A stretch of DNA of 7,230 nucleotides from a virus (IMGVR_UViG_2547132270_000006:1-7230), one strand, 5' to 3'; numbered from the stretch's first letter, positions 4,511 through 4,591 are shown. Made by a program: numbers and translations. Notes: generated from the sequence alone by a model not told the origin.

Positions 4511-4591
4511 AATGACGCCCTCTGGTGGTTTCTAAACTATCACCACCGTCAGGTTCCAATCATCGGGTGGTGAGACGCACAGGGTTGGAAC
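4511..4591 (-). promoter_or_regulatory. Structured 5' leader with interleaved complementary segments upstream of the ORF6N gene
   Basis: On the minus-strand RNA: GUUCCAA (4591-4585) pairs UUGGAAC (4559-4553); UCACCACC (4573-4566) pairs GGUGGUGA (4547-4540) perfectly over 8 bp; GGUGGU can alternatively pair ACCACC (4529-4524), which abuts the ribosome-binding site AGAGGG. Pairings are mutually exclusive or pseudoknotted. Confidence 0.3.

Follow-up and report, generated by a model that had tools for sequence, protein, structure and literature searches.

The C4 RNA of phages P1 and P7 is an antisense RNA that acts in trans and whose 5' end is made by RNase P. In P1, c4 represses ant, and the ribosome-binding site (RBS) that is covered belongs to icd, a small open reading frame (ORF) whose translation is needed for ant transcription. 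In the Salmonella prophage Gifsy-1, the locus order is antQ-isrK-orf45/STnc1160-anrP (Hershko-Shalev et al. 2016, PMC4825925). There, PisrK drives the transcription of anrP, and IsrK supplied in trans raises anrP translation 139-fold (PMC4825925). The Gifsy-1 study ascribed the regulation to orf45 translation and translational coupling, and the sites called a2 and b2 below were not addressed in it (PMC4825925).

In this study, we analyzed a stretch of viral DNA of 7,230 nucleotides (IMGVR_UViG_2547132270_000006:1-7230), hereafter the window. An initial annotation had flagged the interval 4511-4591, read here on the minus strand (GUUCCAACCCUGUGCGUCUCACCACCCGAUGAUUGGAACCUGACGGUGGUGAUAGUUUAGAAACCACCAGAGGGCGUCAUU) and followed by the AUG of a 187-aa ORF (4510-3947), as a leader RNA with interleaved stems next to the RBS. 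We found that the interval is very probably the tail of a C4 antisense RNA gene together with its docking sites at the RBS of an ORF6N gene. This reading turns an anonymous-looking leader into two known small RNA genes and their targets, and adds to the known phage immunity modules an E. coli prophage copy with its own recognition sequences.

Homologous loci and alignments

The first set of homologues came from a pattern scan of viral contigs, which yielded about 120 loci with 71 distinct C4-plus-leader sequences; 52 sequences of this set (51 distinct rows) were aligned with MAFFT to give alignment A1. The second set comprised more divergent loci found by a pattern with a different 5' strand (ATGGCGGG...). 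This pattern returned many false positives, and its rows were kept only where an a2 match was present. Alignment A2 covers 55 homologues. A BLAST search with the Rfam C4 consensus found SfV/2H10-type cassettes and did not find P1.

Organization of the cassette

Except where noted, the features described below lie on the minus strand. The cassette is preceded by a Q antiterminator gene (4789..5184; Pfam PF06530, 175 bits), before which lie genes for RusA and a DUF968 protein; lysis genes follow downstream on the same strand, and the gene context fits a lambdoid prophage. A sigma-70-type promoter is predicted at 4755..4784 (TTGACC, 18 nt, TATATT; 10/12 matches), beginning 4 nt after the Q stop codon. 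The -35 TTGAC and the -10 are conserved in five cassettes with differing upstream genes, and we infer that the sequence is active as a promoter. Related promoter regions lie in L002 (1471-1612), L032 (1227-1367) and L001 (1440-1590). The promoter (4755-4789) occupies the place of the lambdoid late promoter pR', and IsrK with its terminator resembles the short pR'-tR' transcript. With regard to a Q-dependent pR' origin of IsrK, cassettes in non-Q contexts carry the promoter as well. The same -35/-10 pair is found behind ninE in the Stx2 phage 1717, behind a KilA-N gene in APSE-7 and behind an unrelated 225-aa Q-like ORF in L032.

An Rfam scan of the whole window gave three matches above the gathering score, all on the minus strand. 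The first is an IsrK-type small RNA at 4672..4748 (RF01394, 77.3 bits; gathering score 50), for which an intrinsic terminator was predicted (4693-4677 plus a U run). The second is a c4-a1b1 element at 4761-4709 (RF03163, 50.1 bits; gathering score 46.7). Together with the terminator they occupy 4761..4672, directly after the Q gene and upstream of C4, so that sites duplicating the downstream targets are present on the same transcript. The a1 site UUGGAAC (4723-4717) is in the loop of IsrK hairpin 2 and is identical to a2; the b1 site GAGACCG (4708-4702), also in IsrK, pairs with b' over 7 bp with one G-U. The third match is a C4-type antisense RNA gene at 4563..4646 (RF01695, 71.0 bits; gathering score 45; E = 8.8e-13; model positions 1-87). 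Other Rfam matches at E up to 10 (snoRNAs, a prion pseudoknot and isrJ at 867-934) scored well under the respective gathering thresholds, and we dismissed them as chance hits.

In the minimum free energy (MFE) structure, the C4 region folds into a 17-bp closing stem (4641-4625 with 4584-4568), hairpin 1 (4624-4611), hairpin 2 (4610-4593) and an 8-nt junction. It has a tRNA-like stem and an invariant CC tail; a tRNA/tmRNA scan of the window found none, so that this resemblance does not reflect a tRNA gene. By analogy with the ends of P1 C4, the mature RNA is predicted to span 4640-4566. The segment a' (GUUCCAA, 4585..4591) lies single-stranded in the junction, and b' (CGGUUUC, 4598..4604) forms the loop of hairpin 2, from which, judged by its sequence, it would recognize both b2 and b1. 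The flagged interval therefore starts in the single-stranded junction of the C4 fold and runs through the C4 3' strand into the ORF leader, holding the last 26 nt of the C4 gene plus the target leader of the ORF6N gene.

Several short elements follow in the interval. S3 (UCACCACC, 4566..4573) consists of the outer 3' strand of the closing stem and the ACC tail, the CC of which is invariant in the homologue alignment. The target site a2 (UUGGAAC) is at 4553..4559. Between a2 and b2 is a segment that we call the box (GGUGGUGA, 4540..4547), which pairs with S3 or, alternatively, with ACCACC at 4529-4524. The target site b2 (GAAACC, extended by ACC; 4524..4532) is directly 5' of the Shine-Dalgarno sequence AGAGGG (4518..4523), which was read from the sequence and stands 7 nt before the AUG at 4510. 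That AUG begins an AnrP-like ORF6N-domain gene of 187 aa (3947..4510; Pfam PF10543, 73 bits), the predicted regulated target. No icd-type leader ORF was found between b2 and this gene, which follows b2 directly. Its product is 55% identical over the full length to the protein after isrK-C4 in the Gifsy-1-like locus L032. The window thus combines an RF01394 match, a terminator, a PF06530 Q gene upstream and an AnrP-like protein downstream, as expected of an IsrK locus; the AUGA overlap that joins orf45 to anrP is absent, and no isrJ was found downstream of the ORF6N gene, the sole isrJ match in the window being far away at 867-934 with 18.5 bits (gathering score 37).

Complementary segments in the flagged interval

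The three pairs claimed by the initial annotation were all located on the minus strand of the interval. Stem A is a 7-bp pair of GUUCCAA (4591-4585) with UUGGAAC (4559-4553), namely a' with a2. Stem B is a perfect 8-bp pair of UCACCACC (4573-4566) with GGUGGUGA (4547-4540), joining the last five pairs' worth of the C4 3' strand and the ACC tail to the box. Stem C is a 6-bp pair of GGUGGU (4547-4542) with ACCACC (4529-4524) and ends 1 base before the Shine-Dalgarno sequence. Stem A interleaves with stem B, and the GGUGGU strand is common to B and C; the three stems therefore cannot all form, and the mutual exclusivity that had been claimed holds.

We then compared the interval with 2000 dinucleotide shuffles of its 81 nt. 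It contains 6, 3 and 1 exact complementary 6-, 7- and 8-mers, respectively; the mean number of 6-mers in the shuffles was 0.8, and the fractions of shuffles reaching the observed counts were 0.005, 0.015 and 0.033. Folded alone, the 81 nt gave -18.9 kcal/mol, a stability no better than that of shuffles (z = +0.25). With the upstream C4 sequence (4500-4660), z was -2.8, indicating that the stability appears only when C4 is included. Judging the 81 nt by their own energy would therefore wrongly dismiss the finding.

The claim of a regulatory RNA region with exclusive pairings beside the RBS was borne out. In two sets of loci obtained independently of each other, compensatory changes maintain stems A and B. 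Stem C fared differently. It is present 1 base from the Shine-Dalgarno sequence, but in the homologue alignment it was 53.5% paired against 51.4% in shuffles and is not conserved. The folding and covariation check that the annotation had proposed for homologous leaders thus separates A and B, which show compensatory changes, from C, which stays at the shuffle level; and the statement that the geometry is not that of random sequence stands for A and B and for the k-mer counts, but not for C. A further stem D, proposed by RNAalifold between the 3' half of the box and the spacer from the Shine-Dalgarno sequence to the AUG, was marginal (87.4% paired versus 84.1% in controls). The element that actually touches the RBS, the b':b2 pair, had been missed.

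A processing-site geometry had also been suggested, and this very probably applies: the C4 3' end is expected at about 4566/4565, inside the interval, and processed RNAs of about 180 and 80 nt have been reported for the Gifsy-1 homologue (PMC4825925). Excision of C4 from the operon transcript is suggested indirectly by the smaller of these RNAs and by the tRNA-like stem with its invariant CC. By analogy, these sizes fit a cut at the C4 3' end, within 4591-4511, followed by the release of a C4-sized RNA.

Specificity of the antisense contacts

The C4 fold was well supported in A1. Together with a':a2 it was 97.3% paired, with a covariation score of 0.428 versus 0.166 in shuffles (51 distinct sequences). 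The closing stem was 99.9% paired, 6 of its 17 pairs being changed on both sides, and in hairpin 1 all 5 pairs were changed on both sides (51 distinct rows each).

The 7-bp stem is the a':a2 antisense contact known from phage P1. Two sites complementary to a' and b' lie downstream of C4 (a':a2, 7 bp; b':b2, 6-9 bp). In loci that had not been selected for it, an exact complement of a' was found 18-24 nt after CCCTG in 68 of 69, and an exact reverse complement about 80 nt upstream (a1) in 67 of 69, even though a' took 18 different sequences among these 69 loci. In the 55 homologues of A2, a' and a2 were paired in 385 of 385 cells, by Watson-Crick pairs only, and five positions showed 3-4 pair types; for the rows of the second set the count is circular, since those rows were selected for an a2 match. 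The complementarity of a' and a2 averaged 7.0 nt within a locus versus 3.2 nt across loci. For b':b2 the averages were 8.2 nt and 4.3 nt, with 33 distinct b' loop sequences, and each b' loop variant in the homologues was matched by 6-11 nt beside or across the Shine-Dalgarno sequence. An overlap of b2 with the Shine-Dalgarno sequence is seen in most homologues; in the window b2 abuts it, 1 base short. The b':b2 core in the window is only 6 bp (-5.6 kcal/mol, or -9.4 kcal/mol with a bulged extension).

Both in the window and in the homologues, a1 and b1 match the same a' and b' as a2 and b2 do. Covariation was found for a':a2, b':b2, a':a1 and S3:box. Stem A pairs with an element of which a second copy lies upstream and changes in concert with the two; this is the signature of an RNA:RNA specificity determinant. 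RNAcofold of C4 with the leader returned an MFE structure without intermolecular pairs. This result is uninformative, because the loop-target contacts cross the closing stem and the program cannot model such contacts.

Some loci depart from the pattern. L065 (6395-6555, minus strand) is a hybrid whose a' (ACGCCAA) does not match its a2 (TTGGAAC), which should prevent a':a2 pairing. In L010 and L026, similarity is lost at or just after the GGUGGUGA box, and both are without b2 and the anti-repressor gene.

A helix between the C4 3' strand and the leader

The 8-bp S3:box helix was 94.9% paired in A1 and 89.5% in A2, compared with 30-68% in slid controls. Changes on both sides were seen at 5 of the 8 pairs in A1 and likewise in A2; one pair, for example, was U-A in 27 and C-G in 17 sequences, and another was G-C in 26, A-U in 16 and G-U in 13. 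The S3/box variants in the homologues include TCGCCACC/GGTGGCGA, TCCGCCAC/GTGGCGGA, CCGTCACC/GGTGACGG, TCCGCCGC/GCGGCGGA and CCATCACC/GGTGATGG. The complementarity averaged 7.25 nt within a locus versus 6.5 nt across loci and is thus not locus-specific. Unlike the a and b contacts, S3:box therefore looks like a structural helix and not like a specificity element.

S3:box and the base of the C4 closing stem, its outer part, are in competition. Among the MFE folds of the read-through RNA of 65 homologues, 39 contained a1:a' in cis, mostly together with S3:box, 15 the C4 fold and 10 a':a2 in cis. In the window, the C4 state (-99.3 kcal/mol) is favored by 3.4 kcal/mol over the state with a1:a' plus stem B (-95.9 kcal/mol), whose predicted population is only about 5%.

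The Gifsy-1 structures as published end at nt 180, before the box (PMC4825925), and the Rfam C4 model extends only slightly beyond CCACC. No description of S3:box was found in the C4 and IsrK literature that we searched, the original P1/P7 papers being outside its scope. We tentatively propose that S3:box might be a functional third element of C4/IsrK loci that has not been described so far, a switch helix opposed to the tRNA-like base of C4 that would link the binding of a1/b1 both to the maturation of C4 and to a hairpin loop presenting a2. The role suggested here draws on covariation and MFE predictions. If the proposal is true, the leader is a multi-state riboregulator and not a simple antisense target, and S3:box is a testable addition to the model of anti-repressor switching, hence of prophage induction.

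Proposed mechanism and alternative explanations

We infer that the following sequence of events operates in this E. coli prophage. Most transcripts would stop at the IsrK terminator, and the read-through RNAs would carry C4 and the ORF6N gene. C4, of about 75 nt, would be cut from the read-through RNA, its 3' end falling after ACC at about 4566, inside the interval. As in the c4 mechanism of P1/P7, a' would pair with a2 and b' with b2 beside the Shine-Dalgarno sequence; 30S subunits would thereby be kept off, and the ORF6N protein would not be made. The sites a1 and b1, either in cis or as free IsrK RNA, would pair with a' and b' and counteract C4. Such competition for a' and b' would explain the activation by IsrK in trans. 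S3:box would form when a1 and b1 hold a' and b' (the published 'structure A') and would stabilize the conformer in which C4 is unfolded. With the helix in place, a2 would be presented in the loop of a hairpin, and the tRNA-like end of C4, a stem followed by ACC, would not form.

An alternative is that the main control is coupling of the Gifsy-1 type. Ribosomes finishing an orf45-like ORF (4642-4532) would open the leader and re-initiate at 4510, IsrK would free the RBS of this ORF, and a2 and b2 would be secondary. The window does contain such a frame over the C4 gene (4532..4642; AUG codons at 4642 and 4630), open for 36 codons, and its two in-frame AUGs are 12 nt apart as in orf45. In Gifsy-1, moreover, an ORF45-SPA protein was detected, and mutations of the start codon or to an early stop reduced anrP activation (PMC4825925). 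The frame, however, is not conserved in the 69 C4 loci: it has 14-17, 27-38 or 45 codons or is open, sometimes into the next gene, and 45 codons occur only in Gifsy-1-type loci, so that we rejected orf45 as a family-wide coding frame. The Gifsy-1 authors themselves saw conservation of the nucleotide and not of the amino-acid sequence in the orf45 region (PMC4825925). In the window, the stop codon UAG (4534-4532) has its first base 24 nt before the AUG at 4510 and leaves 21 nt between them instead of an AUGA overlap, and the sequence scores as structured RNA with compensatory changes. The small ORF is thus not the conserved feature. Some cassettes may be regulated in part by translational coupling through it; as the main control, we consider such coupling unlikely.

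Another alternative, the one that the initial annotation had favored by naming an attenuator or a thermosensor, is a self-contained switch in cis, in which the three stems within 4511-4591 toggle access to the RBS without any RNA in trans. The pairs are real and mutually exclusive, and in the MFE structure of the window a box:ACCACC hairpin with 3 outer pairs touches the Shine-Dalgarno sequence. But taken alone the 81 nt have only shuffle-like stability, stem C, the one near the RBS, is not conserved, and the stem A element varies with both of its copies, one of them upstream. Stems A and B each have an arm within a separate Rfam RNA gene, and partners are found outside the interval (the C4 5' strand, 4641-4625; the b' loop, 4604-4598; IsrK a1/b1, 4723-4702). 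A search of 4511-4660 for an intrinsic terminator found none, and the 7-bp pair is a contact between an antisense RNA and its target and not an attenuator stem. No conserved hairpin encloses the Shine-Dalgarno sequence, so that the interval does not resemble a thermosensor either. We therefore regard a switch purely in cis as very improbable. That the pairs arose by chance, from GGUGG/CCACC words recurring in GC-rich sequence, is hardly credible, for although the MFE of the 81 nt is ordinary and stem C is chance-like in the homologues, the complementary k-mer counts exceed those of shuffles (P 0.005-0.03) and compensatory changes preserve A and B in both locus sets, so that chance accounts for stem C only.

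Distribution and genomic neighborhood

The cassette was found in 808 of 5426 complete E. coli genomes (~15%) and in 251 phage records. It is present in many Stx phages, between ninE and roi, and some E. coli genomes have up to 4 places that match the window cassette. Two C4 cassettes with differing a' and b' occur together in L033 (4067-4128 and 7326-7389), L061 (2163-2225 and 3750-3811), L068 (898-964 and 10150-10213) and L101. This distribution suggests that a single phage or genome can have several anti-repressor modules, each addressed independently.

A 324-bp match of 96% identity lies in E. coli C311 (L243, NZ_CP062204.1 2887718-2897041, positions 4501-4824). The RefSeq/PGAP annotation under this match has only the Q and ORF6N genes and no IsrK or C4 ncRNA feature.

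Downstream of the ORF6N stop codon, a promoter-like sequence (TTTACG, 16 nt, TATGAT; 3929-3902, minus strand) and a terminator-like hairpin (3870-3851) were noted. IsrJ sits at this position in Gifsy-1; an Rfam search of the equivalent region (3851-3929, minus strand) gave no match. On the opposite strand, between the ORF6N and lysis genes, is a DUF2441 gene (3064-3603, plus strand; 29 bits). Its position inside the expected late operon looks like a moron-type insertion.

Comparison with Gifsy-1, P1/P7 and P4

The CI RNA of phage P4 is cited by the Gifsy-1 authors as a structural analogue (PMC4825925). Like C4, it is processed from the leader of its own operon and pairs with repeated sites (seqA/seqC) upstream and downstream. 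It differs in acting through premature transcription termination, and it gave no Rfam C4-clan match here.

The immI region of P1/P7 contains an RNA of the same family, and the order a1-b1-C4-a2-b2 (P1 GenBank annotation) is that of the window. In P1, too, a' is in the junction and b' in a hairpin loop, b2 is at the RBS of the next gene, and a2 lies four bases after the C4 3' end, the same position as in the window. P1 also has S3:box complementarity, with one mismatch. The differences concern what is regulated and what lies upstream. The window is without icd, and the target is the RBS of the anti-repressor-like gene itself; the downstream protein has an ORF6N domain and is not Ant1/2; and the upstream element is a terminated IsrK-type small RNA.

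The likeness to Gifsy-1 extends over the whole cassette. Both have, in the same order, a Q gene, a promoter, IsrK with a terminator, a C4-like RNA and a 187-aa ORF6N protein, and both have two in-frame AUG codons at the C4 5' strand. The viral contig L032 is Gifsy-1-like: behind its Q-like ORF come isrK, C4, the 187-aa protein and isrJ (100 bits), and, in agreement with the published orf45, it has a 45-codon frame that ends in an AUGA overlap. Relative to these loci, the window has a different a' (GUUCCAA versus ACGCCAA in L032) and a different b' loop (UCGGUUUC versus UCGGUGAU in L032). Its small ORF has 36 codons and not 45 and does not overlap the AUG, its Q protein is of an unrelated family, and it is without isrJ downstream. 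In addition, the predicted MFE state is the C4 fold in the window and structure A in L032.

With the numbering of the Gifsy-1 study (A107 = first AUG), a' (ACGCCAA) includes C159 and C162, and a1 (UUGGCGU) includes G31 and G28. The published compensatory mutants, with the pairs G28-C162 and G31-C159 (PMC4825925), therefore demonstrate a1:a' pairing. The a' mutants C162U and C159U gave 484 and 926 Miller units, respectively, compared with 4 for the wild type (PMC4825925, Table 1D), and adding the compensating a1 change gave 224 and 327 Miller units, a partial re-repression (PMC4825925). The a1/a' double mutants restored the RNA conformer, and the reporter was still 56- to 82-fold above wild type (PMC4825925). 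In our reading, which is not that of the authors, such partial compensation is expected if the unchanged a2 cannot pair with the mutated a'. The derepression by the a1 single mutants in Gifsy-1 is not predicted by a simple decoy model. When the Gifsy-1 experiments are mapped onto the P1 layout, 'orf45/STnc1160' corresponds to the C4 RNA and IsrK carries its a1 and b1.
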